DNA from: Candidatus Moraniibacteriota bacterium
Lineage (GTDB): Bacteria > Patescibacteriota > Minisyncoccia > Moranbacterales > UBA1568
DNA: 64,000 bases
Direction: 5' to 3'
Assembly: GCA_049289395.1 (NCBI GenBank)
Contig: JBATLQ010000045.1
Coordinates: 5,565-69,564 of the forward strand
Shown: piece by piece, positions 26,676 through 47,015 of the stretch
Layout: the number at the start of each line of letters is the position of its first letter
Position numbering within the stretch: position 1 is the stretch's first letter
Position numbers and translations under genes: made by a program
Notes under the pieces: generated by a model
Databases searched by the model: none
What the model saw: only the letters and a program-made list of their open reading frames with translations
What the model was told of the DNA's origin: nothing

Positions 26676-28112
26676 ATGTTTGAATTTTTCGCGAAAAGTA
26701 GGAAGCTCCTCGGCATGAACGCGCGCAATCTCGGGTATGTGCGCTCTTTCAACAGAAAGCGTGGCATGCGCATCGCTGATCACAAACTCCTCTGCAAACG
26801 CATTCTCGCGAAAAACAATCTGCCCGTATCGACGCTCATCGCGAAAATCCATACGACAGAGGAGCTCGAGACTTTCGATTGGAATGCTCTCCCAAATAGC
26901 TTTGTGCTGAAACCAAATCGCGGCTTCGGCGGTGAAGGGATCCTCGTCGTCTATGGCAAGAAACGATCCGATCCTGCCCGCAATGCTTCGCATAGCGATG
27001 CAGGCGGGGCATGGGTGAAGGCCGACGGCTCCATCGTCACCATCGATGATATCAAGACTCATATCCGCAACATTCTCGATGGTTCATTCTCCCTCTCCAA
27101 TACTCCCGATTCCGCGTTTTTCGAAGAGCGACTCAAACTTCTCAAGCTCTTCAAGCCCTACGCATTCAAAGGCATCCCCGATATCCGCGTGATTGTTTTC
27201 AATAAAATACCCATCATGGCGATGCTCCGTCTCCCAACGCGTGCCTCCGATGGCAAGGCGAATCTCCAACAAGGCGCTATCGGACTCGGCATCGATATGG
27301 CGACCGGCACCACGACGACCGCCATCCAGGGGAAGGGCTCCATCATCGAATACGCACCCGGGACGAGACTCCCGCTCTCCGGTATCAAGATCCCCTATTG
27401 GAAAAAAATCCTCACCATGTCCGTCCAAGCACAGGAAATTTCCGGTCTCGGTTTTCTCGGAGCGGATATCGCGATCGATCGCGACCTTGGCCCCGTCATC
27501 CTCGAGCTCAACGCGCGCCCCGGACTCTCCATACAACTCGCGAATCTCTCCGGGCTGAAGGAGCGCCTCGATCGCGTGAAGGGATTGAAAATAAAAACCG
27601 TGGAGAAGGGTATCCGTGTCGGCATGGATCTCTTCGGCGGTGAGATCGAGGAAGAACTGGAAGAAATTTCCGGCCGTCGCGTCATCGGATGTATCGAAAA
27701 GGTGAAGCTGATTGGAAAAGACGGAAAGGAAATCGAGGTCGAGGCAAAAATCGATACCGGTGCCGATTCAACTTCGATCGATACCGAACTCGCGAAAAAG
27801 CTTGGTTTCTCCGATGTACTAGAGTTTTTTGAAACTATCCCGGAACCTAAAACAGACAACCAGGATGATATACGAAAAATGTCTGACGCCTACGACATAA
27901 GATATAAAAATGCTCACCCAGACCTCCGGGCTATCGTCTTCGCTCGCTCCGCGAATGGACTCAGCATGCGCCCAAAAGTAGAAGTATCACTCATCATAGA
28001 TACCGTCGAGATTTCCGCTCGCACCACCATCATCGATCGATCACGCCTCGAATACCCCGTAATCATTGGAAGAAAAAATCTCTCTAAATTTCTTGTTGAT
28101 GTAAATAAATAA
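26676..28112 (+). CDS. ATP-grasp amidoligase (RimK-related) fused to C-terminal retropepsin-like (DUF785/RimK-associated protease-like) domain
   Basis: 478 aa; ATP-grasp C-terminal motif ILELNARPGLS; C-terminal region with AKIDTGADSTSID and LIIDTVEIS Asp-Thr-Gly-like motifs. Confidence 0.55.
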   Translation: MFEFFAKSRKLLGMNARNLGYVRSFNRKRGMRIADHKLLCKRILAKNNLPVSTLIAKIHTTEELETFDWNALPNSFVLKPNRGFGGEGILVVYGKKRSDPARNASHSDAGGAWVKADGSIVTIDDIKTHIRNILDGSFSLSNTPDSAFFEERLKLLKLFKPYAFKGIPDIRVIVFNKIPIMAMLRLPTRASDGKANLQQGAIGLGIDMATGTTTTAIQGKGSIIEYAPGTRLPLSGIKIPYWKKILTMSVQAQEISGLGFLGADIAIDRDLGPVILELNARPGLSIQLANLSGLKERLDRVKGLKIKTVEKGIRVGMDLFGGEIEEELEEISGRRVIGCIEKVKLIGKDGKEIEVEAKIDTGADSTSIDTELAKKLGFSDVLEFFETIPEPKTDNQDDIRKMSDAYDIRYKNAHPDLRAIVFARSANGLSMRPKVEVSLIIDTVEISARTTIIDRSRLEYPVIIGRKNLSKFLVDVNK

Positions 28113-28120
28113 AAAAACTT

Positions 28121-29062
28121 ATGACAAAAAATTCCCTCATTATCATCAGAGAGGCTGAACACATCGGCCTCAAGGTAGAAATTATTTCCGACAAAAAAAA
28201 CCTTTTTGTCATTCATGGAAAAAACAAGTCTCTCACTGTGTGTGAACTATTTTCCATAACACTCGATCCTGCTGGCGAAGCTTACCGACTCTCTAAAGAC
28301 AAGGTCCTGACCTACCTTCTTTGGGAGCGAGCCAATATACCATTTCCAAAGTATTATCACTTCAAGAATCACGCCGACTTTCAAGAGAAATGCCACAATA
28401 TTCACTTTGAATACCCGCTCATCCTCAAAGAAGGCGGTGGTTCAAAAAGCATTAATGTCCATATGGATATTCAATCGATACATCAACTAAAAAAATCAGC
28501 CGCCAGCTATACAAAGGAGTTTCTCGCTCAACAAATGATCATCGGGAAAGAATACCGGCTCCTCCTCCACCAAGGGAGCCTCCTTGGTGCCCTCCTTCTC
28601 ATTCATCCGCATATCATCGGGGATGGAGAGCATACCATACATGAGCTCATCGAGATGGCAAATCACAATAAAGAAAAGAAGCTTGTTTTGGATAAAAATT
28701 CACTTGCCATACTTCAAAACGATGGCCTCTCCCCAGAAAGTATTCCTCAAAAAAATAAAAAGATTTTTCTCCAAAAAAACTCCCGCCTTTCCCAAGGGGG
28801 GGAATCACATGACTGCACTGACATCGTGCACCCAGAAATACTACGCTTGGCCAAAAAAGCTATTGAAGCAACCAACCTCGGTCTCGGTGGGCTCGACCTC
28901 ATCTGTGATGACATAACCCTCCCCCCAGCAAATCAAAAATTCATGTTCCTTGAAGTAAATACCTACCCTGATCTCAGTATCCACTATGAGCCCACTCACG
29001 GCTCCCCCCAGCCAGTCGCCAAACTTATTCTTGAAAATATTTTCGATGCCAACGCACAATAA
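28121..29062 (+). CDS. ATP-grasp family ligase
   Basis: 313 aa; C-terminal FLEVNTYPDLSIHYEP ATP-grasp motif; AT-rich gene. Confidence 0.5.
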   Translation: MTKNSLIIIREAEHIGLKVEIISDKKNLFVIHGKNKSLTVCELFSITLDPAGEAYRLSKDKVLTYLLWERANIPFPKYYHFKNHADFQEKCHNIHFEYPLILKEGGGSKSINVHMDIQSIHQLKKSAASYTKEFLAQQMIIGKEYRLLLHQGSLLGALLLIHPHIIGDGEHTIHELIEMANHNKEKKLVLDKNSLAILQNDGLSPESIPQKNKKIFLQKNSRLSQGGESHDCTDIVHPEILRLAKKAIEATNLGLGGLDLICDDITLPPANQKFMFLEVNTYPDLSIHYEPTHGSPQPVAKLILENIFDANAQ

Positions 29063-29101
29063 AAGCACTCGGAACGATTGATTTTAACACACCTTGTCAC
29101 T

Positions 29102-29983
29102 ATGCCAAAAAAACTACACTTTCTTATCATAATGGGAAAAACAGGCCCAAATCATATCGACATAATTAATGCAATCACTGACGCTGGGCACATAAGTCAT
29201 ACATTTAGCATCAACGATGCTACCATCAAAATTATTCAGGGAAAAGAAGTTGTATTTTTCCAAGAATACCCGCTCTCATTTTTCGACATCATTATACCGC
29301 GCACCATACAAACAAACCTCAGTCTCGGAAGATTTATACTCTGCCAAGCTAGGGCAGAACAATTTGTTCTTGATGAATGCATCGCACATCGTGATACCTT
29401 TGGGAAAATATCCCAAGGTAAAGCGCTCCTCGATAAAAAAATAAATCACCCAAAAACTATTTATACCGCAAATGCCGATGCTCTTCCCCTTATAATAAAC
29501 GCACTTTCATTCCCTTGTGTTGCAAAACCAGTATCAGGTCGACAAGGGGCTGGCGTAACACTCGTAAGAGACCAGAACGAAGCAATTAAAATTATTAAGG
29601 AACACGCTATGGGCTATCTCTTCCAAGAATACCTCCCAATTCAATTCGACTATCGGATATTCGTAGTTGGGGGAAAAGCAATTGGGGGGATACAAAGACA
29701 TATCTCTAAAAATGACTTCCGCACCAATGCCTCTGTTGGATCCGAGGTCACAAACACAAAAATGACAGCCGCCCTGCGCTCCACAGCGATTCAGGCCACA
29801 GCTGTTTTTGGGTACGACATTGCAGGAGTAGACATAGCCATTGTCAATGGGAGGCATTATGTTTTTGAAGTAAACCGCTCTCCTCAATGGCAAGCATTCA
29901 AAAAAGCAACTGGGATAAATCCTGCCAAACATATTATCGAGTATGCTATTAAAAAACATCATAAAAAACATCGAGCGGCTTGA
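29102..29983 (+). CDS. RimK-like alpha-L-glutamate ligase (ATP-grasp)
   Basis: CVAKPVSGRQGAGV, DYRIFVVGGKAIGGIQR, IAGVDIAIV and FEVNRSPQWQ match RimK-type motifs. Confidence 0.65.
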   Translation: MPKKLHFLIIMGKTGPNHIDIINAITDAGHISHTFSINDATIKIIQGKEVVFFQEYPLSFFDIIIPRTIQTNLSLGRFILCQARAEQFVLDECIAHRDTFGKISQGKALLDKKINHPKTIYTANADALPLIINALSFPCVAKPVSGRQGAGVTLVRDQNEAIKIIKEHAMGYLFQEYLPIQFDYRIFVVGGKAIGGIQRHISKNDFRTNASVGSEVTNTKMTAALRSTAIQATAVFGYDIAGVDIAIVNGRHYVFEVNRSPQWQAFKKATGINPAKHIIEYAIKKHHKKHRAA

Positions 29984-32714: not shown

Positions 32715-33599
32715 CTATCGCTTGAAGTCCGCACTGATTTTCCAAATACCTTTTTCACGGAATGCTGGGATCGTCTGATGCCTTGCCGCATTCGATATCC
32801 CTGACGCAGGCACATCATGCTTCTTCGCGTATTGAGCAAGAGTAATGATATCACCACCCTTCATATAGGTAATTCTTTTGTTCATCGATTCCATGAGAGC
32901 AAGCGTCACTACTCGCTCCATGGAGCTCGTATCACCGTCATTTCGATACTCTCCAAATGTTTTGTAATATTTCGATTTTTCCTTATCCCGAATAATAATC
33001 GATGGAAGTCCGAGTTGAAACATCTGATAATTCATGAGCACCCGACCAATGCGACCATTCCCATCGCAAAACGGATGGATTGTCTCGAAATCCAAATGGA
33101 ACTTCGCGATCTTATCCAAAAAATACGCGTCAATGTTTCCGGAGTATTCCAGAAGAAGCGAGCCGATCATATGTTCGACGCGCTCCGGTGCCGGTGCCAC
33201 ATGTGTCCCCACGCGGACATACTCTCCGGTCTTGCGAAATCGTCCCGCATACTCATCATTGATTCCGCCGAGGAGCATCTGATGGAGGAAGAGCATGAGC
33301 TCCTTATCAACACTCTTTTCCTGAGACTTGGTCCGGATATAATTCATAACCCGTGCCAAATTCTTCGCCTCGAAAATTTCACGGACACTGACATCCCGAG
33401 ACACCTCCATTTCCAAGAGAATCTTCTCCGTTTCCCGAAGCGTCAGCGTCGAATTCTCGATAGCATTCGAATTGTAGACACTCTCTGGAATTTCCGCTTC
33501 ATCCAAGAGGACAAGCAAGGACTCCTTCCCTTTGCGCAAGGTATCATATTCGTTCTTCAGTACCTGAAGACGCTTCCTGATATGTGCTGATGTAGCCAT
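32715..33599 (-). CDS. Fic-family protein (AMPylase/ Fic-DOC)
   Basis: 294 aa; canonical Fic motif HPFCDGNGRIGR. Confidence 0.8.
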   Translation of the reverse strand: MATSAHIRKRLQVLKNEYDTLRKGKESLLVLLDEAEIPESVYNSNAIENSTLTLRETEKILLEMEVSRDVSVREIFEAKNLARVMNYIRTKSQEKSVDKELMLFLHQMLLGGINDEYAGRFRKTGEYVRVGTHVAPAPERVEHMIGSLLLEYSGNIDAYFLDKIAKFHLDFETIHPFCDGNGRIGRVLMNYQMFQLGLPSIIIRDKEKSKYYKTFGEYRNDGDTSSMERVVTLALMESMNKRITYMKGGDIITLAQYAKKHDVPASGISNAARHQTIPAFREKGIWKISADFKR

Positions 33600-33604
33600 A
33601 TTTT

Positions 33605-33697
33605 TTCGTGAATTGTATGTATAAAGTATACATCATTCACGATTTATTGTCAATAATTCGTGAATTTTAGTGAAAAATAGACAATATTCACGATTTA
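33605..33697. promoter_or_regulatory. palindrome-rich operator/promoter region upstream of fic
   Basis: TTCGTGAAT (33605-33613, 33657-33665) paired with ATTCACGA (33643-33650, 33686-33693); inner palindromes TGTATA...TATACA and TTATTGTCAATAA. Confidence 0.45.
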
Positions 33698-33901
33698 TGG
33701 AACCAATTTCTCAGGTTTGTTTACAATCACCCATCTTTACCCCTCCAGAAAATTGTTTGGAAGCCTTGCCTCCAAACAGTCAAGATACATTTCCCCCCTT
33801 CTCTTCTTTGAGACGGAACTTCACGATCTTTCGGATCAGTGCGAGCGGGAGCTTCCCTCCGAGCGGGAATTGGAAATCGGATGGCACCCAACAACAGCTT
33901 T

Positions 33902-34261
33902 CTAGTTCTCCAAAGAATCCAAATACTCCTGTATCAATCCCCTGTCCTCATTTTCTTTCTCACCCTTGTAGTACAGCTCGATAAAATCTATCAGGACAAC
34001 TTCTCCGTTATCAATATTATGCGCGTAAATAATACGAAACAATGACTGCCCCTTCAGCGACGCGCAAGAAAGCCGCACCTTGAAAATAGTAATACATCCG
34101 TTATCCGAAATATGCAGCCTGTTCCAATGCTTGCTTCCATTGCCAAGTGGCAACACCCTCAAAACATCCTGGAGCTTGCTGAGATCGCTCTGCAATGATC
34201 TGTATTTCTTACTCAATCGCTTTAGTTCCTTCGAAAATTTCTGTGATTGCCGGAATTCCAT
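33902..34261 (-). CDS. type II toxin, RelE/ParE superfamily (HigB-like)
   Basis: ~120 aa from MEFRQSQKF; C-terminal RIIYAHNIDNGEVVLIDFIELYYKGEK pattern; 20 nt downstream of HTH-DUF4065 gene. Confidence 0.5.
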   Translation of the reverse strand: MEFRQSQKFSKELKRLSKKYRSLQSDLSKLQDVLRVLPLGNGSKHWNRLHISDNGCITIFKVRLSCASLKGQSLFRIIYAHNIDNGEVVLIDFIELYYKGEKENEDRGLIQEYLDSLEN

Positions 34262-34280
34262 ATGTCTGTTCGGTGCAGTA

Positions 34281-34997
34281 TTACAATTCATTATACTGTC
34301 GTACAGACAATTTCTCCGGGCGATAGAAAACATGATCGTACTCGATATTCTTCCCATCCTCTGCGGCAAACCACGGCGTATCCTCATGCGAAAGTACCGA
34401 GAGCTCCGCAGCACTCTTCTCTCCATATCGCGCCAGCACACTATCGATCATCGTCATTTCCTGAGCACTCAGACTGCTCAAGTCTGCATGGCGATGTGGC
34501 AGAAATTTCCTCTGCTCATAAGTAAAGTACGCACTCTTCACTTCTTCCAATTCTCCACTTTTCTTCATCTCCTCCACGACACTCACGAATTCCCTCGGCG
34601 TCGGACCATGATGATTCTTGATATAGGTCAGTCCCATGAGTTGATCCTCGTACTTCTCATAGTAATCAAAGTCGATGAAATAGAGGAGCTTATAGAGCAC
34701 AGTCATACCGACATTCGGCTTCCCTGCCGTCTTTTCCAAGACATACAGAAAAACCTGCTTGAATTTCTCAAGTTTCTTCTGCGGAATACTGACACGCATA
34801 TCCCCCTTCGGAGATACATGATCCCTCACGATACCGAAAATCTCTTGAATCTTCCATTCTTCCACCTTGGTCAATTTCCGCTCATTATTTTCAACCTTGG
34901 CCAAAGTCGGACGGGAAATATCCAAACGCTTCGCAAGCTCTCCCTGCGACATGCCATATTCTTCCCGCAATTTTCGTACATCAATTTTCTGGGACAT
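34281..34997 (-). CDS. antitoxin-like HTH (XRE) + DUF4065 (Panacea/SocA-like) domain protein
   Basis: N-terminal HTH MSQGELAKRLDISRPTLAKVENNER; DUF4065-like LYKLLYFIDFDYYEKYEDQLMGLTYIKNHHGP. Confidence 0.55.
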   Translation of the reverse strand: MSQKIDVRKLREEYGMSQGELAKRLDISRPTLAKVENNERKLTKVEEWKIQEIFGIVRDHVSPKGDMRVSIPQKKLEKFKQVFLYVLEKTAGKPNVGMTVLYKLLYFIDFDYYEKYEDQLMGLTYIKNHHGPTPREFVSVVEEMKKSGELEEVKSAYFTYEQRKFLPHRHADLSSLSAQEMTMIDSVLARYGEKSAAELSVLSHEDTPWFAAEDGKNIEYDHVFYRPEKLSVRQYNEL

Positions 34998-35188
34998 AAT
35001 ACTTTTTTTAGTACCTTAATAATACCACCCTTTCTATCACTCTGCAAAGAATTTGTCAATATATAGTAATAATTTACACAATTACTTTACAAAATAAACC
35101 TAATAATATACAATGATGCTGTCGAATGAGGGGGAACCCTCTCAACGGTCGGGTTCGGCTAATAAACACAATAATCCAAACAAACGGT

Positions 35189-35377
35189 ATGGCAATGTAT
35201 CGCCTCAAAAAAGATGCCAATAGACAATATTACTGGATTTTGCAATCTAGCGAAAATCGTAAGATTGTCGCTATGAGTAGCGAATCATACGATTCCAAGC
35301 AGGGAGCTCTCAACTCCATCAGCTGGACAAAAGCAAACGCAGACAAAGCGGGATTCGAAGATAATACTCAGCTTTAA
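35189..35377 (+). CDS. YegP/DUF1508-family small protein
   Basis: MAMYRLKKDANRQYYWILQSSENRKIVAMSSESYDSKQGALNSI matches UPF0339 repeat. Confidence 0.6.
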   Translation: MAMYRLKKDANRQYYWILQSSENRKIVAMSSESYDSKQGALNSISWTKANADKAGFEDNTQL

Positions 35378-35412
35378 ATTCGCTTCAAAGAGAAAAATGA
35401 AAATAAAAATCT

Positions 35413-35452
35413 AAAAAGAGGGCGTGTATTGAGACACGACCTCTTTTTTACT
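35413..35452 (+). terminator. intrinsic terminator
   Basis: AGAGGGCGTGT-attgag-ACACGACCTCT followed by TTTTTT. Confidence 0.55.
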
Positions 35453-35610
35453 TCCCTACCCCCACACTAAAGGCTTCTTGAAGAATGGATTGCTCGAGGC
35501 GGTCGAGCACGCCGGAGCAGAGGTATTCCTCATTCGCTTCTCCTTATGATATTCAGACATACGTTTCACTTACGAGTTACATATTTTGGTATGTAACTAC
35601 AAAAAGGAAC

Positions 35611-36021
35611 TCAATCACTCTTCCGATCTCCTATGACTTGTATATCTGTGACACGGATATTCTCCAGACACTTCGAGTCACCATAGTACTCGCAATCATC
35701 AGGCTCTTTCTCTCCTGTTATTTTAAATACACCGTTTTCATTTTCCCTCACATATTTTACATAATCATCAATCCTTTTTTCATCATCCATCTTTTCAATC
35801 ATTGCAAAGAACCATGGATGATCCTCAAACTCATCTAGTACCCTTCCTTGTTCGATATCATAGTAAGAGAATCGCACATCCCCCGATGTTGAAACTCTTG
35901 AAAGAACGCCATATCTTTCTACAAAAGAACTCCTCCCTGCATTATGTATATTCACCCACAAAATAGAAGCCGCAATAGCAACAAGAAGGAATATTGAAAT
36001 ATAGAGTGAATTTTTTTTCAT
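35611..36021 (-). CDS. hypothetical secreted/membrane-anchored protein
   Basis: signal-peptide-like MKKNSLYISIFLLVAIAASILW; last gene of minus-strand operon. Confidence 0.4.
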   Translation of the reverse strand: MKKNSLYISIFLLVAIAASILWVNIHNAGRSSFVERYGVLSRVSTSGDVRFSYYDIEQGRVLDEFEDHPWFFAMIEKMDDEKRIDDYVKYVRENENGVFKITGEKEPDDCEYYGDSKCLENIRVTDIQVIGDRKSD

Positions 36022-36025
36022 GATA

Positions 36026-36784
36026 TTATTCCATTTTGGATAAAACTTTAATTTCATTCGCCATCCTTATCCATTCTGCATTACTTATTCCATGTGCCAT
36101 TGGATGAGGTATTACAAAATAATTGATGCCTTCCTTTTTACAATAATGAAATCCCTCCGACTTCTTAAATTGACACTTCGCTATTTCAATCCAATGAGGA
36201 AGGTACATAAATGAACAGAAAATTACAGTGGTTGGTCGATGCTTGCTGATATATTTTTGATACAACTTAATCCTCATTGGCATTACCTCCTGAAAATACA
36301 CCCCTCGTGTCATCAAATAATCAATTTTAAAATTAAAATAAACCCAATCCAGCTCGCGTATTGAGCTCGATGGTAATGGCATTAGATCAAGAATACAATG
36401 ATTGCTATCTCGTCGACCAAATCTCGTTTTCTGATATTCTCTCACAATTTCAGTAGTCACAGATTGCTCCTCAAAGGCAAGCAACATGGTGATCAGCTTA
36501 CTCCAAGTTCTTTGAATAGGAGGTCGTTCCCCTAAAAAATATCTTATGTGATCTGGGACATCCGTCATGTCATCACAAATATCAACAACCAAACTATCCT
36601 TTGTTGCTTTGAAGCGAGGCTTCAGATCTTCTAATTCGCCAGCAAACCCCTCTTCCATACACACAAACCAAATATTTGAGTCAATATTTCCATAACCCAA
36701 AAAATTATTGATCCTATTTTCTATAAGTTCTTTCGAAATCATTGCTTTTTTGAAGAAATATTTTTCAATTCCACTTATGAACAC
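36026..36784 (-). CDS. hypothetical protein with uracil-DNA-glycosylase-fold-like motifs (divergent)
   Basis: GYGNIDSNIWFVCMEEGF resembles UDG family-4 motif GEGxpxArlMfVGEAPG; NHCILDLMPLP resembles NvVKCRPP; C-terminal VIPHPMAHGISN resembles HPSxLLRN; by-eye only. Confidence 0.3.
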   Translation of the reverse strand: MFISGIEKYFFKKAMISKELIENRINNFLGYGNIDSNIWFVCMEEGFAGELEDLKPRFKATKDSLVVDICDDMTDVPDHIRYFLGERPPIQRTWSKLITMLLAFEEQSVTTEIVREYQKTRFGRRDSNHCILDLMPLPSSSIRELDWVYFNFKIDYLMTRGVYFQEVMPMRIKLYQKYISKHRPTTVIFCSFMYLPHWIEIAKCQFKKSEGFHYCKKEGINYFVIPHPMAHGISNAEWIRMANEIKVLSKME

Positions 36785-36895
36785 ACGGATTCCGTGTTCG
36801 CCTCCCCTTGTAGTATTCGGACATAGTGGTTAGTGATAAAAAATGGTATCTAGCCTCTCTTCTATTTTTGGATTGTTGAACATAATTCTTCTTAT

Positions 36896-38887
36896 TTATC
36901 CTTTTGAGGTGATAGCCTCCTTCTTGAGACTTAGAATCCTATTCACAACCTTTTCGAGAGACGCACTGCTTTCCCCTGCTGCTTTTGCGCTAGTTATAAT
37001 ATCAGTAACTATATTCGGATTCTTTATTGCGTGTTTCTTCTTTGTTACTCCATACTTTTTCTGACATTCCACAAGAATCCTTTCAAATTCAACAGTGCCG
37101 ATTTCCTCACAAAGAGTGCTTTCAAGTTTGTCTTTAAAGCACGAAAATTTATCTTCAATATATGCTGGCCATTCCTCCTCAATACTACCGACCAATCTGA
37201 GCAATTTTTTATTCTCATCAGGATTCGCCTTTCCATCTGCTTTTCCACACAACTCACACGCTCCAGATGTCTCGCCTTTTCCATAATCGCCATCCCAAAC
37301 TATATATGTCGGTATTCCTAATTTTGTGAAAATTATGTACGGTCTATCTATATTCGTTTTTCCTCCACAAGGAATTATAGAAAATCCATCCCCCTCCAAT
37401 TCGTGCCCCATTGCTTTTGCGGTACCCAATATAGCCGCCCTATCATCTTCACCCTCAACAAGAATATTCGCATCAGCAAAAAATCCCTCATTCATCCAAG
37501 GCGTCATTATGGCGTGAAGCCTGGGAATCAAACTGGCTCCAGTATACTGTTGTCCGCGCTTCCCGTCAGCTTCCCAGCTAGCTAAAGCAACTTCATCTAG
37601 TGTCGTATGAATAACCTTTGTTATTTTCGGTTTCTCCACCTCGTTTACTAACTTACGAAAAAGCCTTATCTGGTCAATCCTATCGATGCCCACAAAATGA
37701 GGAGAGTGAGTACAATATATAATTTGAGTGTTATCGGCTACTCCTGGCATTTTTCCGTCTGCTAACTGTCTTAGTATTTTTGCCAAATGTCTCTGTCTAT
37801 TCGGATGCTGATAAATTTCTGGCTCCTCGATTGCCAAAATAAGCGTGGGTAAATCCGTTTCAGTTACTCCTTCATCGGTCTTTGCACTCTTAACTTGTTC
37901 CATTGCCAAATGCTGAAGTAGGGTCAAAATAAATGCTCGCTGTAGCCCGTGCCCGGTTTTTTCAACTGACGACTCAAATCCGTCTTCAATCAGCTTTATA
38001 TCAGCTTGTGGCATAGGCATAGTAATGCCGGCAAGTGGAAGCCAATTCAATCCAACTTGAGCATTTGGAACATAAATCTTCATCGTTTCAGTCATCTGTT
38101 TTTCTAGAACCTTCAATTCAGTAAGCTTTTCAGGATCCATTATTTCCTTATACTTTTCCTCGGTCTTATTTTTCAATTTAACATACTCCTCCTTTCTCAC
38201 AAGAACACTTCTTACAACCAAATCCATCAAGCGAGAAAACGTAGAGCTTTTTCCATCTTCAATATCAATACCCGCATTACGAACAGCAGGTATAAAGAGA
38301 AACTGCGAAAACTTTCCCAGATAACCCTTCGCCACGCTCTTAAAACCGAAAAATTGTCCGTCATCTCTCATACGAACACATTGTGTACGATTCTCATTCT
38401 CCCATTTATCCAACTCAATTACAGTTGTCTGATTCTTCCAATCCGGCAATCTCTGATATTTTTCATTTTTTTTTAATTCAACATATTTCTCTTTCTTGTC
38501 TCTCGCTGAAGAAGCATTCCTCACTGAAGCGAAATCTGGATTCTGCAAACTTGCACCGTGATACTTAAAACTCGGTTTACCATCAGTCCAATCAATTACA
38601 AGCTCAATAGTTAATTTGTCGTCCTGTAAATAAGAACCAAAAAGACGTTTTGCTTCTTCTGAAAGCTTTTTATATGTAACGGCTACGACTATAGGCGATG
38701 ATGTATCCTTATTATAATAATCATCCTGTTTAATGCTTTGAGAAAAAGCATAAAATATCTCAAGCGCCTTCAGGAAAGTCGACTTTCCTGTCCCATTTGC
38801 CCCAACCAATGCCGTCAGATCCTCCAAATAAACTTCTTCATCCAATAGCGATCTATAATTTTTAATTAAAACAGATTCAATCAACAT
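36896..38887 (-). CDS. OLD-family ATP-dependent nuclease (ABC-type ATPase + C-terminal Toprim)
   Basis: 663 aa; Walker A LVGANGTGKST, Walker B LILAIEEPEIYQHP, H-loop IIYCTHSPHF; C-terminal Toprim motifs ILVEGEDD and IVWDGDYGKGE. Confidence 0.7.
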   Translation of the reverse strand: MLIESVLIKNYRSLLDEEVYLEDLTALVGANGTGKSTFLKALEIFYAFSQSIKQDDYYNKDTSSPIVVAVTYKKLSEEAKRLFGSYLQDDKLTIELVIDWTDGKPSFKYHGASLQNPDFASVRNASSARDKKEKYVELKKNEKYQRLPDWKNQTTVIELDKWENENRTQCVRMRDDGQFFGFKSVAKGYLGKFSQFLFIPAVRNAGIDIEDGKSSTFSRLMDLVVRSVLVRKEEYVKLKNKTEEKYKEIMDPEKLTELKVLEKQMTETMKIYVPNAQVGLNWLPLAGITMPMPQADIKLIEDGFESSVEKTGHGLQRAFILTLLQHLAMEQVKSAKTDEGVTETDLPTLILAIEEPEIYQHPNRQRHLAKILRQLADGKMPGVADNTQIIYCTHSPHFVGIDRIDQIRLFRKLVNEVEKPKITKVIHTTLDEVALASWEADGKRGQQYTGASLIPRLHAIMTPWMNEGFFADANILVEGEDDRAAILGTAKAMGHELEGDGFSIIPCGGKTNIDRPYIIFTKLGIPTYIVWDGDYGKGETSGACELCGKADGKANPDENKKLLRLVGSIEEEWPAYIEDKFSCFKDKLESTLCEEIGTVEFERILVECQKKYGVTKKKHAIKNPNIVTDIITSAKAAGESSASLEKVVNRILSLKKEAITSKG

Positions 38888-38946
38888 ACATGAAAAATCA
38901 AAAAGGGATAAGTCTATTTGCTATATAAATTAAATCAATTAGTTTT

Positions 38947-39168
38947 TTAAAATTTGGATTGGTATCTTGGTTTATATTTGTTAATATAAGCATTCAAACC
39001 ATTATGCTCGCACGCTAATCTTTTCATATTTTCAATATGATTCGATCCTGCACTCATGTATGTATAGATATAAACTGATCCATCATGAAATTGGACTTTG
39101 ATATAGTCATTACCAATTTCAAAAGCATCTACATTTGAATCACCATCTCTATCATTATATGGTTGCAT
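38947..39168 (-). CDS. KTSC-domain small protein
   Basis: 73 aa; IKVQFHDGSVYIYTYMSAG matches KTSC pattern. Confidence 0.4.
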   Translation of the reverse strand: MQPYNDRDGDSNVDAFEIGNDYIKVQFHDGSVYIYTYMSAGSNHIENMKRLACEHNGLNAYINKYKPRYQSKF

Positions 39169-39182
39169 ATAATTTCTATTTA

Positions 39183-39911
39183 TTACGAAATGAATTTAGT
39201 GGTCGCTTCAACAAGCTTAACAAAGCATTGTTTTATATCAGTCCAATCATTACTATTTATCTCCACTTTGTCGCCATCATTATAATTTTTAATATTAGCA
39301 CTAAATACCCTTGTCGCACTTACAAATTTCTTATCTATAATACCTCCTTTATGCACCAACACATGCCTAAGTTCCAAATAAAAACATATCTTTTTCTCAA
39401 TCTCATCTTCCAAGGAAATATTTTTTGATAAATATTTTTCAAAATTTCTTTTTATTGCCTGAAAATCCTGAAAATTAGGCTTTACTTTTTCAAGAACAAG
39501 CCTGCCAAATCCACCCCGATAGGTAAGTTTATTTTTAACTAGTTCAGCCAAAGTAATTTTTATCCCTTCTAACTCTTTATTTTCCAGATTGATTCCATTG
39601 AAACCATTCAAAGCATTTTCAAAATACTTCTTCAGAGTCGCCTCTAAACTTGAAACTGCAAGGATACACATTTGCGAGTATATAACTTTAAAATTGTTTT
39701 CAATTGATCTATTGTTAATATTTTCCAGTCCGCTCTTCGCATTATCCAAAGCTATTTTCACAGTTGTTTGTATTCCAGAAGTATTAATCGCTACAGTCAA
39801 GGCTTGAACTGCCATATCTTTAATCAAACTTGGTGTCCGTTCAAGTTTATCGATATCAGCAAGTTCTTTTTTAAAATTCTTGAGGTAATCAGTCGTTGGC
39901 AATCTTGACAT
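39183..39911 (-). CDS. hypothetical protein with HEPN-like R-x4-H motif
   Basis: 242 aa, mostly helical; ELRHVLVHKGG fits HEPN Rx4-6H signature; first gene of operon. Confidence 0.35.
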   Translation of the reverse strand: MSRLPTTDYLKNFKKELADIDKLERTPSLIKDMAVQALTVAINTSGIQTTVKIALDNAKSGLENINNRSIENNFKVIYSQMCILAVSSLEATLKKYFENALNGFNGINLENKELEGIKITLAELVKNKLTYRGGFGRLVLEKVKPNFQDFQAIKRNFEKYLSKNISLEDEIEKKICFYLELRHVLVHKGGIIDKKFVSATRVFSANIKNYNDGDKVEINSNDWTDIKQCFVKLVEATTKFIS

Positions 39912-39963
39912 ATTTTTTTATACAAACATCCATTATAAAAATCCTTTTTAAACTCCTTTCTTA

Positions 39964-39994
39964 TGAAAACAAACACCCCGGAAGTCCGGGGTGA
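39964..39994 (-). terminator. intrinsic terminator (minus strand) separating DpnI-like operon from OLD operon
   Basis: perfect 9-bp stem CACCCCGGA-AGT-TCCGGGGTG; on minus strand followed by UUUGUUUUC. Confidence 0.5.
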
Positions 39995-40140
39995 TGGAAT
40001 AATCTTGCGAATATGGCTCTTTCCTTTCTTCTTTTTCTATTTAGGATGGGTTTTATTTTTTGTTAGTCCTAGCATACCACAACATGTGAAAAAATACAAG
40101 TGTCAAATCTTTTGAAAAATAAACAAATTTTCATACATAA

Positions 40141-40356
40141 TTATGAACCTGTCCAATCCTCTCTGCACTGTGCGCACCGTTCATTGCCAGTATGATCAAA
40201 ACAGTCAGTAAATTTGTTCGGCTCATATCTTTGCTCATCTTCATTCCAAAAAAACTCGTCATCAATGAGTGTCTCGACAAGCTTTCTTTCTGCTCCGCAA
40301 TGCTGGCAAGCATGCCTAGGAAAATTTTTTGTTTGTACATCCATATTCCCGATCAT
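40141..40356 (-). CDS. small zinc-ribbon protein (71 aa)
   Basis: CQHCG...CAQC Cys pairs; 15 nt downstream of DpnI-like gene. Confidence 0.35.
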   Translation of the reverse strand: MIGNMDVQTKNFPRHACQHCGAERKLVETLIDDEFFWNEDEQRYEPNKFTDCFDHTGNERCAQCREDWTGS

Positions 40357-40371
40357 TGATCGAAAACAAAT

Positions 40372-41139
40372 CTATGTCAAACGATACTGTCCATAACCAA
40401 CAAACTCCAGATAACCCTTATTCCTCAAAATCTGTAACTGTTGCCTTATTTTAGGTCTTATATTTTTGTTTTCAGGATGAATTATAGATAAATCGTACTC
40501 GAAAGCATACATATCCTGTAGGGTAAATTTCTTTTGATTGAGTGAATCAATACAATTCATAATATCCAAGATCCACCCTTTGCTATCCGATTTTTTAATT
40601 TTTTTCAAAAATAATGTCTTCTGCCATTTTTCCAGTACGCTCTTTTTATCCGTCTCTTTCCCATTTTCTACATAGAATATTTGTCCAGCCTTTGGAATCT
40701 TTGAGAATAAAATATTCGAGCCAATCCAGCCAGCGCGTCTGGCATTTTCTCTGAGTGGTTTCCTTTTTTCAATAATCTCGGAGATAAAAAAATGTTTCGG
40801 TATAACAAAAAAATCATACACCTTTGAGGCTTCAGCTATATACCCCATAAAAAAGAAATTTGGTTTTTCTGATGAATTGATTCTTTTGATCATTTGAGAA
40901 TAGGCTCCGGCGGAAACCTTTTTACCAATTTTCCCATTTTTAGATTTTAACTCAAAGTCTTCAACACATGTTTTACAATAAAAATCAGCAACTGGTTTAT
41001 TATTACCATAATTGTAAATACCATTGCCACAATTCGGACAATAAATCTCATGAAGCACCCATGCCTCACTTAAAACACGAGCTTTTTGAGAAACACTCCT
41101 ATACTGAATCGCTAATTTCGTATCAAAAAATAAATTCAT
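40372..41139 (-). CDS. DpnI-like (Dam-replacing family) methyl-directed restriction endonuclease
   Basis: 255 aa; SQKARVLSEAWVLHEIYCPNCGN, ADFYCKTCVEDFELKSK (PD-ExK-like with Zn ribbon), NFFFMGY, RRAGWIGSNI and C-terminal winged-helix-like IRQQLQILRNKGYLEF, as remembered for DpnI. Confidence 0.55.
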   Translation of the reverse strand: MNLFFDTKLAIQYRSVSQKARVLSEAWVLHEIYCPNCGNGIYNYGNNKPVADFYCKTCVEDFELKSKNGKIGKKVSAGAYSQMIKRINSSEKPNFFFMGYIAEASKVYDFFVIPKHFFISEIIEKRKPLRENARRAGWIGSNILFSKIPKAGQIFYVENGKETDKKSVLEKWQKTLFLKKIKKSDSKGWILDIMNCIDSLNQKKFTLQDMYAFEYDLSIIHPENKNIRPKIRQQLQILRNKGYLEFVGYGQYRLT

Positions 41140-41235
41140 AATTGATGATCAATAATCTCCACTGAAAACTCATTTCATAAATGAAATGGTGTCACTATGA
41201 CAAACAATCCTATTTGTCCAAGAACCAATCCATAA

Positions 41236-41694
41236 TCAGAGATTAATTTGATACTGCAGTCGCCTTGTCTTAATCCGCTGATTTAATTCTTCAGATGTCA
41301 ACATTGCGTACCCCTTGCTTTCCGGGTGAAGGCTGACGAAACAAAAACGGTACTGCTTACCCAGTTTATCTGCTAATCGAAACTCATTTTCTGTTGCGCC
41401 AAAGAAAAATCCATCAGGATTATTAACGAGTTTTTTCTGAGTTGTTTTAAGTTCAATCAATACAATCTGCTCAAATGGAACATCCATAATACTCATACCA
41501 CTTACCATTGGAAGAAGAACGAGATCAAATGCACGAGAAAATGTCATTGGCAAATCAAGGCGCCTCAAAATCTCCTTTCGTTCTTCTTTGCTTGGCTTCT
41601 TAAAGCGAGCATCTGATTCAAGTAAAAAATCAACCGCTGATGTCTCGGTTATATTATTCTTAATTGTTGCGCCATATGAATGTTGGTGTGCCAC
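41236..41694 (-). CDS. PD-(D/E)XK-like nuclease superfamily protein (152 aa)
   Basis: AFDLVLLP ... IVLIELKTT matches D...ExK core. Confidence 0.35.
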   Translation of the reverse strand: MAHQHSYGATIKNNITETSAVDFLLESDARFKKPSKEERKEILRRLDLPMTFSRAFDLVLLPMVSGMSIMDVPFEQIVLIELKTTQKKLVNNPDGFFFGATENEFRLADKLGKQYRFCFVSLHPESKGYAMLTSEELNQRIKTRRLQYQINL

Positions 41695-41937
41695 GATCTG
41701 ATTAGATCATACAAAAGCACCCAGATCAAGATCGCCACCAGAAAACTATTCCCCATAATAAAAATTCCCCCATTCTCCCACCCCAGTCGGAATAGCACAA
41801 GTTCCGACGGGAGAAACAAAAAAATCCCTTCTCGGTGGGAATTTCATCCTATTTTCTCTCCCCAGTGACCTTACATGTGGTGTGCCCCAGTTACATTCCG
41901 AATGATGTAACGGGGCAGGCGGGGTAAACCACCCTAT

Positions 41938-42474
41938 TTATTCAGCAACAAATCGAATCGAGATCTTTTTGTCCATATACTGTCGAAGGTGTCCGATGAG
42001 AGTCGCAGCGACCTCATTCATTTCCATACTTTCAACTTCTTTCAATATGGTAATTTCAGCCAAATCTTCGCTCGTCTCATCGTTGATAATCGTAATCACA
42101 CCAGGCCTCTTCCCTATGACGATAGATTTCAATACTCCTTTCTCTTTTTTGGTTATCTTCAATTCATCAACCATCATGCTGTATGTTTCTGCTGCTGTTT
42201 CATAATCCTTTTTCGACTCAACCAGCCCTGCTATCCTATTGACGGCTAAGCCATTCTTCATATGCTCACCCATTATTTTCGATAGTGAAAAAACCTCCTC
42301 ACGGGGAGCCTGCTTCAATTCCAATTCTTCGAGAGAAAGCCCCATCGCCAGCTGATATGAAACGAAAAGTTCCTCGCTACTGATATTGTTGCTTTTCGAA
42401 AAAGATATTATCTCTTCCAACTGCTTCTCTTGCGGATCATCTCCCGTCTTCGGAAACTCCATTGGATTTTTCAT
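41938..42474 (-). CDS. hypothetical protein (178 aa)
   Basis: ORF with coding-like composition, acidic; no family recognised. Confidence 0.4.
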   Translation of the reverse strand: MKNPMEFPKTGDDPQEKQLEEIISFSKSNNISSEELFVSYQLAMGLSLEELELKQAPREEVFSLSKIMGEHMKNGLAVNRIAGLVESKKDYETAAETYSMMVDELKITKKEKGVLKSIVIGKRPGVITIINDETSEDLAEITILKEVESMEMNEVAATLIGHLRQYMDKKISIRFVAE

Positions 42475-42697
42475 ACTATATTTGTTATTTCTTCCAATCC
42501 CGAATTACTACCCCACCGCGGACGCGGGTGACCACTACTTTTTGCTTCTCTCTCCATCCAAGCTCGCGGACGAGCTCAATCGGGAGCGTCAGCCCAATAG
42601 ACTTTCCACCGAGTTTGGTAAGTTTCCGAACGCTTTTATCCGTTGCTTGTTTTGGCATAATATTTTCTTTAGTTTATCGCCTCATTTTCAGTCCCCC

Positions 42698-42726
42698 TTG
42701 TCAATTTTGTCAATATTTGGTATATT
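42698..42726 (+). promoter_or_regulatory. sigma70-like promoter TTGTCA-17-TATATT
   Basis: TTGTCA 42698-42703, spacer attttgtcaatatttgg, TATATT 42721-42726. Confidence 0.5.
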
Positions 42727-42732
42727 CTAGTT

Positions 42733-42790
42733 GGTCGCGAGGAAACCCGCGCCCATCAAAATGGAGTCTCCTTGGGAGGCTCTTTTTTGA
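42733..42790 (+). ncRNA. candidate ~55-nt small RNA (promoter-to-terminator unit), antisense to 3' end of DUF3800 gene
   Basis: promoter above; terminator hairpin GAGUCUCC-UUG-GGAGGCUC (one G.U) then UUUUUU at 42765-42790; a GCGAGG/CCCGCG 5' hairpin. Confidence 0.3.
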
Positions 42791-43565
42791 TATTCTCCTT
42801 GATATTCTCCAAAGTTAATGGAAAAACTTTCAATCCAATTCCTAAGCAATCCCCTTTTACCTTCAAGAGCTTTGGATAAGTGATATCACTATAGCGCCAA
42901 TATTCTTCTGGCTTTTTCCCATACTCAAAAATATGATACACGGGATAGCAATAGAGATCAGCTATTTGTATTCCGACAGTATCCTCGGAAGTCGAATACA
43001 GAAGCTTTTCAACGATATTCGGACACTTTTTCCATATATCCCCATCCCTCCATCGCATCATATGATGAATATCCTTAAGAGAATCACCGATAAATGATTT
43101 TTCAACTGTTCCGACACGAGGATCAATCACACAGAGACCGAGCGAATTCCGCTCTTTCAAAAATCGCTGAAATCTTTCGAGGAGATAGAGGTATGCTATC
43201 TCATATGGATTCTGTGATGGGTATTGTTTCCAATAAGCATCCTTATTAATCACTATGGCTATCAATGTGATTGGCAGGGAAACCAAGTATGCCTTTATAT
43301 CAGCCTCAAGTTGATTATACATTTCTCGATCATGCAGTTTGAGCGGCGATTCCTGTTCCAAGTCGGGATTCGCATACCGAAGGAAGTTTGATTTGATTTC
43401 AAGATCTTCATTCTGAAAATATTTCTTTTTGATTACACGGAGATCTTCTTCAACTTTCACGCGGTCCGAATCATTGATGATGCATCCAGTCAAAACCAAA
43501 AACTGCTTTCCTTTTTGAGAAAGCGGTATAGTATCACCCGATTCATCTATATACATGAGATACAT
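42756..43565 (-). CDS. DUF3800-family protein
   Basis: 269 aa; N-terminal MYLMYIDESGD hallmark of DUF3800. Confidence 0.6.
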   Translation of the reverse strand: MYLMYIDESGDTIPLSQKGKQFLVLTGCIINDSDRVKVEEDLRVIKKKYFQNEDLEIKSNFLRYANPDLEQESPLKLHDREMYNQLEADIKAYLVSLPITLIAIVINKDAYWKQYPSQNPYEIAYLYLLERFQRFLKERNSLGLCVIDPRVGTVEKSFIGDSLKDIHHMMRWRDGDIWKKCPNIVEKLLYSTSEDTVGIQIADLYCYPVYHIFEYGKKPEEYWRYSDITYPKLLKVKGDCLGIGLKVFPLTLENIKENIKKEPPKETPF

Positions 43566-43723
43566 GGATTTCTACGATATGCGTCTACCAATATAATTAC
43601 ATACCTCGTTACATATATCCTATCACCTCCCCATTCCCACGGCAATTTACGCCGAGTCCCTTTATGAAGGGAATTTCATCGCTCTTGAAAGCAAAAATCC
43701 GCCACTCGGGCGGATATTTTCCA

Positions 43724-44033: not shown

Positions 44034-45185
44034 TTATTTCCGAATAGGCATCGCTATATAGAGGAAATGCTGTTTTTTCTCACCATCCACATCGTTCATA
44101 CGGAAAGCGACCGGCGTATGGGGAGTATTACACTGGAGCGTCACCTTCTCACCCTGGAGGATATTGAGCCCGTCGAGGATATATTTCGGATTAAACGAGA
44201 TCGCCATATCCGTATCACCCTGTATATCCGCCGAAAGAGTGACTTTATTCTCTCCAATCTCCTGAGAGAGCGATGCGACCACTACTTTCCCCTCCTGTGG
44301 AAGAAGAGTAAAAATAATTTCTCCTGCTGATTGGGAAGAAAAGACACTTCCCACCCGAACCGCCCGCAAGAGCTCCTCTCGGTCGAATACCACTTGGGAG
44401 GAAAACTTCTGTGGAATAATCTGCTTATAATCAGGATATTTCCCATTGATGAGTCGGGATATGATCTGTATTTCATCTACCTGGAAGAATATCTGATTCT
44501 CATGTAAGGCTATTTTCACCCACTCGCTCTCGGGAGTGATGCTCCGCTGAAGCTCCTGGAGAGTCGCCGCGGGGATGATGAGTGATGGGTGACTCTCGAT
44601 AAATGTGTGGTATTTTTCATTTTCACCCATATTTTCCAGAGGAAATATCTCCTCGCCGAGGCGAAAGCTATCCGTCGCCGCAAAATGAATTTCTTTCTCA
44701 AAGAAGAATGCATGTACTCCTGTGAGTTCGAGGCGACTATCCGTCAGTGAAACACATGGGAGAAGCCTTGAAAAGGCATTTTTCAGGGATTGTGCTGGGA
44801 GATTGAAGAAATATTCTCCATCATACTGTGGGATGAGAGGGAAGTCCTTCGCATCAAGCCCTTTTATTTTCATCTCATACCCACCACTCACGATTTTCAG
44901 GAAACTTCCCGTGGTCTCGAAAGAGAGGACATCCTGAAGAGGGAGATTGTGGATAAAATTCGAAAGGAGTTTGGCGGGAATCGTAATCCGACCCTCTTCC
45001 TCAATTTTCCCACCGACATAGGCGATAACACCGATTTCGAGGTTGGTTGCAGAGAGTTTGAGCCGCCCGCCTTTTGTTTCCAAAAGAAAGTTTCCGAGAA
45101 TCGGCAGAGTTGATTGCCTCCCGACGACTCGTTCGAGGATATTGATCGCATGAATGATATTTTCTTGGGTACAGAGGAGTTTCAT
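44034..45185 (-). CDS. dnaN: DNA polymerase III beta sliding clamp
   Basis: 383 aa; MKLLCTQENIIHAINILERVVGRQSTLPILGNFLLE N-terminus typical of DnaN; three-domain length. Confidence 0.9.
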   Translation of the reverse strand: MKLLCTQENIIHAINILERVVGRQSTLPILGNFLLETKGGRLKLSATNLEIGVIAYVGGKIEEEGRITIPAKLLSNFIHNLPLQDVLSFETTGSFLKIVSGGYEMKIKGLDAKDFPLIPQYDGEYFFNLPAQSLKNAFSRLLPCVSLTDSRLELTGVHAFFFEKEIHFAATDSFRLGEEIFPLENMGENEKYHTFIESHPSLIIPAATLQELQRSITPESEWVKIALHENQIFFQVDEIQIISRLINGKYPDYKQIIPQKFSSQVVFDREELLRAVRVGSVFSSQSAGEIIFTLLPQEGKVVVASLSQEIGENKVTLSADIQGDTDMAISFNPKYILDGLNILQGEKVTLQCNTPHTPVAFRMNDVDGEKKQHFLYIAMPIRK

Positions 45186-46875: not shown

Positions 46876-47015
46876 AGGGAATACAAGGGAATGAAATATA
46901 GGTAAATATATCATGACGGCACAATTCTATCGAGTGGGGCGGTGCATATCCGGTGTATAAGTAGGGAGGATGCGTGTGTCTGCCCGCATTGCTACGCAAA
47001 GCGTTGCGGGCGGGA

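Follow-up and report, generated by a model that had tools for sequence, protein, structure and literature searches.

A defence-associated UDG-fold protein with a family-specific Glu-Glu loop in a Candidatus Moraniibacteriota genome

The DNA examined here, hereafter called the window, is a 64,000-nucleotide stretch from a Candidatus Moraniibacteriota bacterium (assembly GCA_049289395.1, contig JBATLQ010000045.1, positions 5,565 to 69,564 of the forward strand). On its minus strand, within an island of defence genes, lies a gene for a 238-amino-acid protein that, judged by its predicted structure, is a member of the uracil-DNA glycosylase (UDG) fold superfamily. It can be described as a defence-associated UDG-fold protein with a Glu-Glu loop specific to its family, uncharacterised though not categorically new. 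Positions below are those of the window unless another contig is named.

The open reading frame (ORF) was listed at 36026-36784 of the minus strand, with 252 codons and a GTG start, and an initial annotation of this DNA took the gene to have that extent. Eight close homologues drawn from 5.8 billion proteins (47–94% identity, 236–277 amino acids) give a shorter one. All eight start at the position of an internal ATG, M15 of the listed frame, and the 14 extra codons enter the remnant of another gene at a breakpoint of homology; we therefore place the gene at 36026-36742. Residues are numbered throughout by the resulting 238-residue protein. The gene, its motifs and its upstream edge are as follows.

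36026..36742, minus strand: gene for the UDG-fold protein (238 amino acids, corrected start), from the ORF and eight homologue starts; stop codon TAA at 36026-36028.
36647..36661, minus strand: motif 1 loop, C28-M-E30-E31-G32, after strand beta1 (residues 24-28); family consensus G-M-E-E-G; putative water-activating loop.
36368..36400, minus strand: strand beta2 (residues 115-119) and loop, H115-C-I-L-D119-L-M-P-L-P-S125, from alignment and model; D119 is the putative counterpart of the base-reading Asn.
36089..36109, minus strand: motif 2 (HPS-like), P212-H213-P214-M-A-H-G218, after the last core strand (residues 206-211), from alignment and model.
36743..36784, minus strand: spurious 14-codon N-terminal extension with a GTG start, not part of the gene; present in no homologue, its GTG lying inside the gene remnant.
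36784..36830, minus strand: 47-nucleotide remnant of the 5' end of a PD-(D/E)XK nuclease gene (MSEYYKG(K/R)RTRN...), forming the upstream edge of a mobile cassette.

The window holds a single copy of the remnant (MSEYYKGKRTRN), a short way upstream of the UDG-fold gene. A scan for promoters and terminators was uninformative, with counts at the level of shuffled sequence. The sole plausible terminator lies at 35438-35423, downstream of the following gene, which encodes a 136-amino-acid protein.

The predicted structure places the protein in the UDG superfamily. An AlphaFold2 model built on a nine-sequence alignment reached a mean predicted local distance difference test score of 92.2 and a predicted TM-score of 0.90, with every segment at 50 or above. 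When the model was compared with the PDB by Foldseek, the top 50 matches all belonged to the UDG superfamily, including TDG, MUG, UdgX and the family-4 UDGs of S. tokodaii and T. maritima. The best of them was TDG (E 6.7e-4, TM 0.49/0.58). A phage "UDG-like domain-containing protein" (E 1.5e-4) led the BFVD matches, and those of the top 20 that bear a name were UDG-like proteins or phage family-A DNA polymerases. Foldseek aligned about 140–150 of the 238 residues, the remainder consisting of helical insertions, chiefly between motif 1 and strand beta2. The layout is also that of the superfamily, an alpha/beta fold built around a central parallel sheet, with the motif 1 loop following beta1 and the H-P pair following the last core strand.

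At the sequence level the relationship is faint and points in the same direction. The protein matched nothing in Pfam or NCBIfam up to E 1, leaving it short of the gathering threshold of the Pfam UDG model PF03167 and unmatched by it even at E<=1. Searches of PDB sequences by phmmer and hmmsearch with the protein and two family profiles returned nothing significant, the best relevant entry being 4zbx (E 0.6). Among 136 family members scanned singly, 28 matched PF03167 weakly (best E 9e-4), and the runner-up Pfam family was matched by three at most. Compared with PDB sequences, the profile of all 136 met the family-4 UDG 4zbx at a non-significant E of 0.6, in an alignment that set "WfiGmEeGg" on "MFVGEAPGE" and "iPHPva" on "tYHPAA". 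Because sequence and structure agree, we assign the protein to the UDG superfamily, at a greater distance than curated models reach. This upholds the initial annotation, which had called the product UDG-superfamily-like and would have dropped the idea had profile or structural comparison turned up no UDG-fold similarity; the model and its Foldseek matches show that similarity.

The protein belongs to a large family. When 1.84 billion cluster representatives were searched with a profile, 1,688 proteins matched at E<=1e-3, of which 1,049 also passed E<=1e-10; almost all are 230–260 amino acids long. At 50% identity the family comprises about 1,700 clusters, of which 136 members were aligned for the conservation counts given here. 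Its members are annotated at source as "hypothetical protein", save for one UniRef cluster whose name begins "Uracil DNA glycosyla...".

Three motifs run in order along the protein: CMEEGF at residues 28-33 (nucleotides 36661-36644), SNHCILDLMPLPS at residues 113-125 and IPHPMAHG at residues 211-218. All three had been picked out by eye in the initial annotation, together with the replacement of the canonical GE(A/G)PG by CMEEGF, and both observations are borne out. The family as a whole has GMEEG at this place, with Gly at position 28 in 128 of the 136 members, E30 in 135, and E31 and G32 in 120 each; M29 is likewise conserved. At the end of strand beta2, position 119 is acidic in 134 members (Glu in 120 and Asp in 14, the latter including the protein studied here). 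L-x-P-L-P-S follows, with P122, L123 and P124 kept in 125–129 members. This is where an NxxKCRPP-like motif had been proposed. The motif is present, but its Asn (N114) is poorly kept, in 44 of 136, and what the family conserves is the acidic residue 119 together with P-L-P. In motif 2, H213 is kept in 129 members and P214 in 121. Elsewhere G16, G18, W25, D54, Q77, T79, W80, Q104, W133, R146, Y149, R157, Y176 and W184 are near-invariant.

We wondered what this arrangement would mean for catalysis. By register, G-M-E-E-G would correspond to GQDPY of family 1, GINPG of family 2, GMNPG of family 3 and GEAPG of family 4. Given this register and the 4zbx alignment, E30 falls on the water-activating Asp or Asn of families 1–3. 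The acidic residue 119, in turn, appears to sit in place of the uracil-reading Asn. To judge from the sequence, the altered loop seems to be another way of achieving catalysis, with a carboxylate, and not a dead site; we know of no UDG family with a Glu-Glu catalytic loop. That the pocket is tuned to uracil is unlikely. Work by Kavli and colleagues in 1996 is said to have found that human UNG carrying N204D gains cytosine excision. Because E30, acidic 119 and His213-Pro are all kept, we favour an active enzyme for a base other than uracil over a dead binding module. Of the two roles suggested in the initial annotation, binding rather than excision or action on a different base, the second fits the retained E30 and HP histidine better than the first.

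The protein is not a UDG of family 4 or 5. Its scores against families 5, 2 and 4 are about equal, and of the family-4 likeness first proposed, the collinearity of the motifs stands and membership does not. The GE(A/G)PG motif of family 4 is absent (CMEEG in the protein, GMEEG in the family), and the base-reading Asn of N..KCRPP at the end of beta2 is replaced by Glu or Asp in 134 of 136 members. Four conserved cysteines of family 4 and 5 UDGs ligate a [4Fe-4S] cluster. The present family lacks this ligand set; since only one Cys column exceeds 50% (C116, 65%), all others being at 11% or below, the cluster signature of families 4 and 5 is missing. Solved family 4 and 5 enzymes (1L9G, 4ZBX, 2D3Y) have GE(A/G)PG or GLAPA where the present family has GMEEG, and compared with them the protein carries about 85 additional residues, mostly in helical insertions. 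TDG/MUG (family 2) and SMUG1 (family 3) resemble it as top Foldseek matches and in a shared G-hydrophobic-X-x-G pattern with a polar catalytic residue third (GINPG and GMNPG, as against GMEEG). However, that third residue is Asn in those enzymes and a carboxylate here, the Pro at the fourth position is missing here, and their sequence similarity to the present family is not significant.

The gene lies in a mosaic island beside the marks of a replication origin, namely dnaA at 45445-46914, dnaN at 44034-45185 and a switch of GC skew near 44 kb. The island contains genes for DUF3800 and DpnI, several ORFs that could not be assigned, the OLD gene, the UDG-fold gene, the gene for the 136-amino-acid protein, a helix-turn-helix (HTH)-SocA/Panacea gene and a Fic gene (SoFic/PDC-S04-like). 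Its main features are these.

32715..43657, nearly all predicted genes on the minus strand: low-GC (33–46%) mosaic defence island holding the UDG-fold gene, between dnaN, of which it lies directly downstream, and the PBP1A gene.
36896..38887, minus strand: OLD-family ATPase-TOPRIM nuclease, 663 amino acids (MFZ1720043.1); AAA_15 2e-46, OLD-like_TOPRIM 6e-18, PADLOC Old 5e-55.
35611..36021, minus strand: gene for a 136-amino-acid protein with a hydrophobic N-terminal segment, downstream of the UDG-fold gene; no family match above threshold.
35621..36831, minus strand: two-gene cassette of 1.2 kb (UDG-fold gene and 136-amino-acid gene), with 79% DNA identity to contig L004 by blastn.

Two other contigs of the closest clade define the boundaries of the cassette. 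L081 comes from a sister strain, with a UDG-fold protein 94% identical to ours, and L004 is an unrelated, more distant metagenome contig (66% amino-acid identity). L081 matches the window at 95–98% DNA identity on the dnaN side (45278-43728), on the PBP side (32614-30514) and in a block at 36825-33906. This block, common to both at 95% identity, holds the UDG-fold gene, the 136-amino-acid gene and the SocA module. In place of the 6.8 kb at 43657-36825, which includes OLD and DpnI, L081 has 2.9 kb with genes for an HTH-M78 peptidase protein and a nuclease of the Mrr type; it also lacks the Fic gene. L004 shares only 36831-35621 with the window, and there the cassette stands behind a type I hsdR gene. 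In all three contexts of the closest clade, the gene immediately upstream encodes a defence nuclease: OLD in the window, Mrr_cat in L081 and HsdR in L004.

The UDG-fold gene is accessory and moves as a small cassette between defence islands. Its ratio of nonsynonymous to synonymous substitution rates (dN/dS) is 0.43 against L081 and 0.26 against L004, as compared with 0.06–0.07 for SocA and dnaN and 0.13 for the 136-amino-acid gene. The amino-acid replacements, small in number, cluster at residues 126-137 and 193-199. The downstream gene travels with it over a short evolutionary range: the 136-amino-acid protein has a counterpart in L004 (8722-9129, 88% amino-acid identity) and one of 137 amino acids in L081 (5913-6326, directly downstream of the UDG-fold gene), and no such gene stands next to any of the other members examined.

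Several observations on the island stand apart from the question of what the UDG-fold protein does. The 136-amino-acid protein is more conserved than its UDG-fold partner in the comparison with L004 (88% against 66% amino-acid identity; dN/dS 0.13 against 0.26), and is possibly an independent, membrane-associated exclusion protein. In L004 the 47-nucleotide element occurs twice, at 7917-7963 and 10298-10344, as a direct repeat around a 2.4-kb block of four genes, and its second copy is the true start of a PDDEXK_1 gene (10299). The element looks like the footprint of a cassette insertion or recombination at the start of a PD-(D/E)XK gene. An integron cassette, suggested by the array of same-strand genes and the two copies in L004, was considered and rejected, the element being the 5' end of a PD-(D/E)XK gene and not attC; no repeat family was found in 32–44.5 kb.

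Between DpnI and OLD lie two minus-strand ORFs, one of 73 amino acids (38947-39168) with a weak PADLOC match to PDC-M49B (E 8e-4), and one of 242 amino acids (39183-39911) that matches nothing in Pfam, PADLOC or NCBIfam. At 33902-34997, the HTH_3 and SocA/Panacea protein (34281-34997, minus strand) overlaps the start of a 179-amino-acid ORF (33902-34441), whose place is taken in L081 by a 127-amino-acid gene; the two probably form a toxin-antitoxin pair of the Panacea type. Three plus-strand ATP-grasp genes (26676-29983), which have no bearing on the UDG-fold gene, lie upstream of the PBP1A gene; two are RimK-like, and the third joins a sugar-transfer-associated ATP-grasp to a Zn-protease-like domain.

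Across bacteria the family is rare and patchy. With the patterns used, 185,579 species genomes yielded 71 family loci, spread over phyla of the candidate phyla radiation (CPR), Chloroflexota, Cyanobacteria, Proteobacteria, Planctomycetota and Bacteroidota, with two copies in some genomes. A canonical UDG, sought in the fetched family loci for a comparison profile, was not found there. Ten CPR loci share a conserved neighbourhood with a terminase small subunit (TerS)-like HTH gene and DNA-methylase genes (ParB-fused in one of them, L016), and in six of the ten the family gene lies between a large serine integrase (phrog_95) and the TerS-like and methylase genes. This neighbourhood and the serine integrase point to a prophage-like element in these CPR loci. 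Among 139 immediate neighbours of family genes, the commonest Pfam families are DNA methylase, insertion sequence/TerS-type HTH, serine recombinase, ResIII, UvrD and PD-(D/E)XK. Candidate defence genes also occur at the Maritalea locus.

A further arrangement recurs at three loci (L026, L011 and L035, the last from a Syntrophaceae metagenome-assembled genome), where the family member adjoins a gene for a UvrD helicase of about 730–1,040 amino acids with GajB-like PADLOC matches. The L035 helicase, the only one of the three scanned by itself, carries a C-terminal PD-(D/E)XK nuclease domain, and in a pooled scan UvrD and PDDEXK_1 each appeared in three neighbours. Three loci are too few to call this an association.

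UDG-fold proteins of anti-phage defence offer the closest functional parallel. Brig1 is an anti-phage glycosylase that acts on alpha-glucosyl-5-hydroxymethylcytosine in DNA, and its essential E147 lies in "ILNFELYPWHS" (Hossain et al. 2024, PMC11078745). Brig2 is an integron-borne UDG-like defence protein that acts against phages whose thymidine is modified (Getz et al. 2025 preprint, 10.1101/2025.10.29.685425). Brig3 (GenBank PX942695) is a 5-hydroxymethylcytosine DNA glycosylase of the UDG superfamily that requires D127 (Mejia-Pitta et al. 2026 preprint, 10.64898/2026.02.25.707755). Brig1 and Brig3 both keep residual uracil activity.

At the level of sequence the present family is not part of the Brig1 family. 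BLASTP gave E>=10, and hhalign gave E 0.18 for the family profile against Brig1 and E 0.25 against a Brig1 profile of 38 members. In the one stretch aligned by hhalign, "LLELmPLPS" falls on "FELYPWHS", which puts residue 119 on Brig1 E147 in a non-significant match. As to the features that mark Brig1, the nearly invariant Asn of motif 1 (Brig1 N72) is Glu here, while the Glu or Asp of L-E-L-x-P-L-P-S is present. Motif 1 reads GLNPG in Brig1 and GMEEG or CMEEG in the present family, which, unlike Brig1, has an HP motif. Brig1 homologues are mostly actinobacterial, in contrast to the CPR, Chloroflexota, Cyanobacteria and Proteobacteria of the present family.

Brig3 and Brig2 were compared by description only. 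Brig3 is likewise a defence-island enzyme of the UDG superfamily and of similar size, and its essential D127, near the flipped base, and aromatic-lined pocket recall the acidic residue 119 and invariant aromatics found here. D127 may be the counterpart of residue 119. By description, Brig3 differs in its N50-P51-S52 loop, of the Asn type, where the present family has E-E-G, and in its pairing with the deglucosylase BapA, a kind of partner that we did not find for the present family. Brig3 is further marked by a wedge residue, N225. Neither of two family profiles picked out a Brig3-like chain among PDB sequences. Brig2, at most 20% identical to Brig1, is also a UDG-fold, low-GC, single gene associated with mobile elements. 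Its phyla differ markedly (Pseudomonadota 735, Bacillota 274, Cyanobacteriota 1 and none from the CPR), which is weak evidence against membership, and the present family may yet prove to belong with Brig2 or Brig3. By analogy, the present gene seems to resemble the Brig-type defence glycosylases in looks and may do so in its working, the likeness to Brig2 and Brig3 again being one of description.

Together with the fold, the retained residues and the accessory setting of the gene, these comparisons suggest a stand-alone defence glycosylase that excises a non-canonical base, probably of the cytosine type, from invading DNA, a reading to which we give about an even chance of being right. The protein is predicted to be an active, monofunctional DNA glycosylase that acts alone. 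An enlarged pocket would receive a non-canonical base flipped out of the invading phage DNA. There the attacking water would be activated by Glu30, whose putative place matches that of E. coli UNG Asp64 and TDG Asn140, and His213 would stabilise the leaving base. The acidic residue 119, replacing the uracil-reading Asn, would read an exocyclic amino group, which would suit a modified base of the cytosine type better than uracil or thymine. The abasic sites left behind would block replication of the invader or be cut by host apurinic/apyrimidinic endonucleases, as shown for Brig1 and Brig3. The fuller proposal, that this is a new family of the UDG superfamily, marked by a GMEEG loop, an acidic base reader and no Fe-S cluster, whose members are single-gene anti-phage glycosylases of CPR and other bacteria excising a modified and probably cytosine-type base, is tentative and somewhat less likely than not.

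A number of observations weigh against a defence role or against the assumed catalysis. The protein matched nothing in PADLOC up to E 1 and nothing in PHROGs at E<=0.001. Only two family loci turned up in 2.9 million viral contigs, and tblastn with the protein and a central family member matched nothing among annotated plasmid and phage records. In Microbulbifer the neighbours are ordinary (the glutamine synthetase gene glnA and DUF305), and PADLOC matches none of the genes at the Roseovarius and Cyclobacterium loci. A distant Chloroflexota/Dehalococcoidia branch (L063-L075, profile E ~1e-33) lies among dehydrogenase genes, repeatedly downstream of an Ldh_2-type dehydrogenase gene and near short-chain dehydrogenase/reductase and aldo-keto reductase genes; because this context is metabolic rather than mobile, the branch may differ in role. 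Within the active site, the protein and four other members have Cys at position 28 where the family has Gly. The catalytic mapping of E30 and D119 comes from motif register, secondary structure and sub-threshold alignments (E 0.18–0.6).

In the strongest rival reading the protein is a glycosylase of a new UDG family that serves DNA repair, and its position in the island would be incidental. It would clear the cell's own DNA of a spontaneous lesion, whether uracil, hypoxanthine, xanthine or a pyrimidine that has been oxidised or alkylated. The fold is the same, residues of the catalytic type are kept, and the neighbours in several isolates are ordinary or uninformative. CPR bacteria, with their reduced genomes, might rely on repair enzymes of an unusual kind, and the residual uracil activity of Brig1 and Brig3 makes for a thin border between repair and defence. 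Against repair stand a distribution that is very patchy and sparse for such a function, and the two copies in some genomes. The 1.2-kb cassette moves between unrelated genomes, integrases and restriction genes adjoin the family, and the gene evolves faster than its neighbours. Moreover, the uracil-reading Asn has given way to Glu or Asp in 134 of 136 members. Taken together, we consider a repair role unlikely, though it is the alternative to be taken most seriously.

A second rival holds that the protein is an inactive UDG-fold module, perhaps a sensor or a blocker, that binds or senses a feature of DNA and excises nothing. None of GE(A/G)PG, GQDPY and GxNPG is present as such, and UDG-like domains without known glycosylase activity do exist, such as those fused to the phage family-A polymerases among our fold matches. 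However, a near-invariant Glu at what is by register the catalytic position, kept together with His213 and acidic 119, is the pattern expected of a selected active site, and no conserved partner accompanies the family to serve as effector. We regard an inactive module as improbable.

The stand-alone glycosylase also has to be weighed against a two-gene system with the upstream OLD gene, in the manner of GajA-GajB of Gabija, in which OLD would cut DNA that the glycosylase-like protein had marked. The two genes share a strand across a 153-nucleotide gap, no terminator-like hairpin lies between them, and three other family members stand beside UvrD-PD-(D/E)XK helicase-nucleases. Comparative context largely refutes the pairing. 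Homology with L081 breaks at 36825, between the two genes, with an Mrr-type gene in place of OLD, and the upstream gene in L004 is a type I hsdR. In 1,170 ORFs from the flanks of about 70 other family loci, within about 10 kb, phmmer found no OLD homologue. From this breakpoint, the Mrr and HsdR substitutes and the other loci without OLD, we conclude that OLD is not a conserved partner. A Gabija-like OLD two-gene system, which calls for conserved adjacency of OLD, was accordingly rejected, and we give such a pairing very little chance. The initial annotation did well to set the UDG-like protein apart from its own operon hypothesis.

Also highly improbable in our view is a toxic glycosylase acting on normal bases such as cytosine, with the product of the small downstream gene restraining it as in toxin-antitoxin or abortive-infection modules. 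An acidic residue where uracil enzymes have their reading Asn can reportedly open the pocket to cytosine, as in the N204D variant of human UNG, and the small gene begins 5 nucleotides past the stop and accompanies the UDG-fold gene in the closest clade. Against this, the hydrophobic N-terminal segment of its product suggests a membrane or secreted protein, the small gene is missing outside the closest relatives, and most family members stand alone.

Base-excising defence enzymes are a very recent discovery (Brig1 in 2024, Brig2 in 2025, Brig3 in 2026), and each family has revealed a different modification of phage DNA. The family described here is large, at about 1,700 clusters, and has no model in Pfam, NCBIfam, PADLOC or PHROGs. 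If its members are active, their Glu-Glu loop would widen the known chemistry of the UDG fold. If they excise a modified base from invading DNA, glycosylase immunity would gain a family independent of Brig1, and phages of CPR bacteria would be expected to carry hypermodified DNA. The family would then offer a handle on DNA modifications in the phages of these uncultivated bacteria, and possibly a reagent for mapping the modified base.

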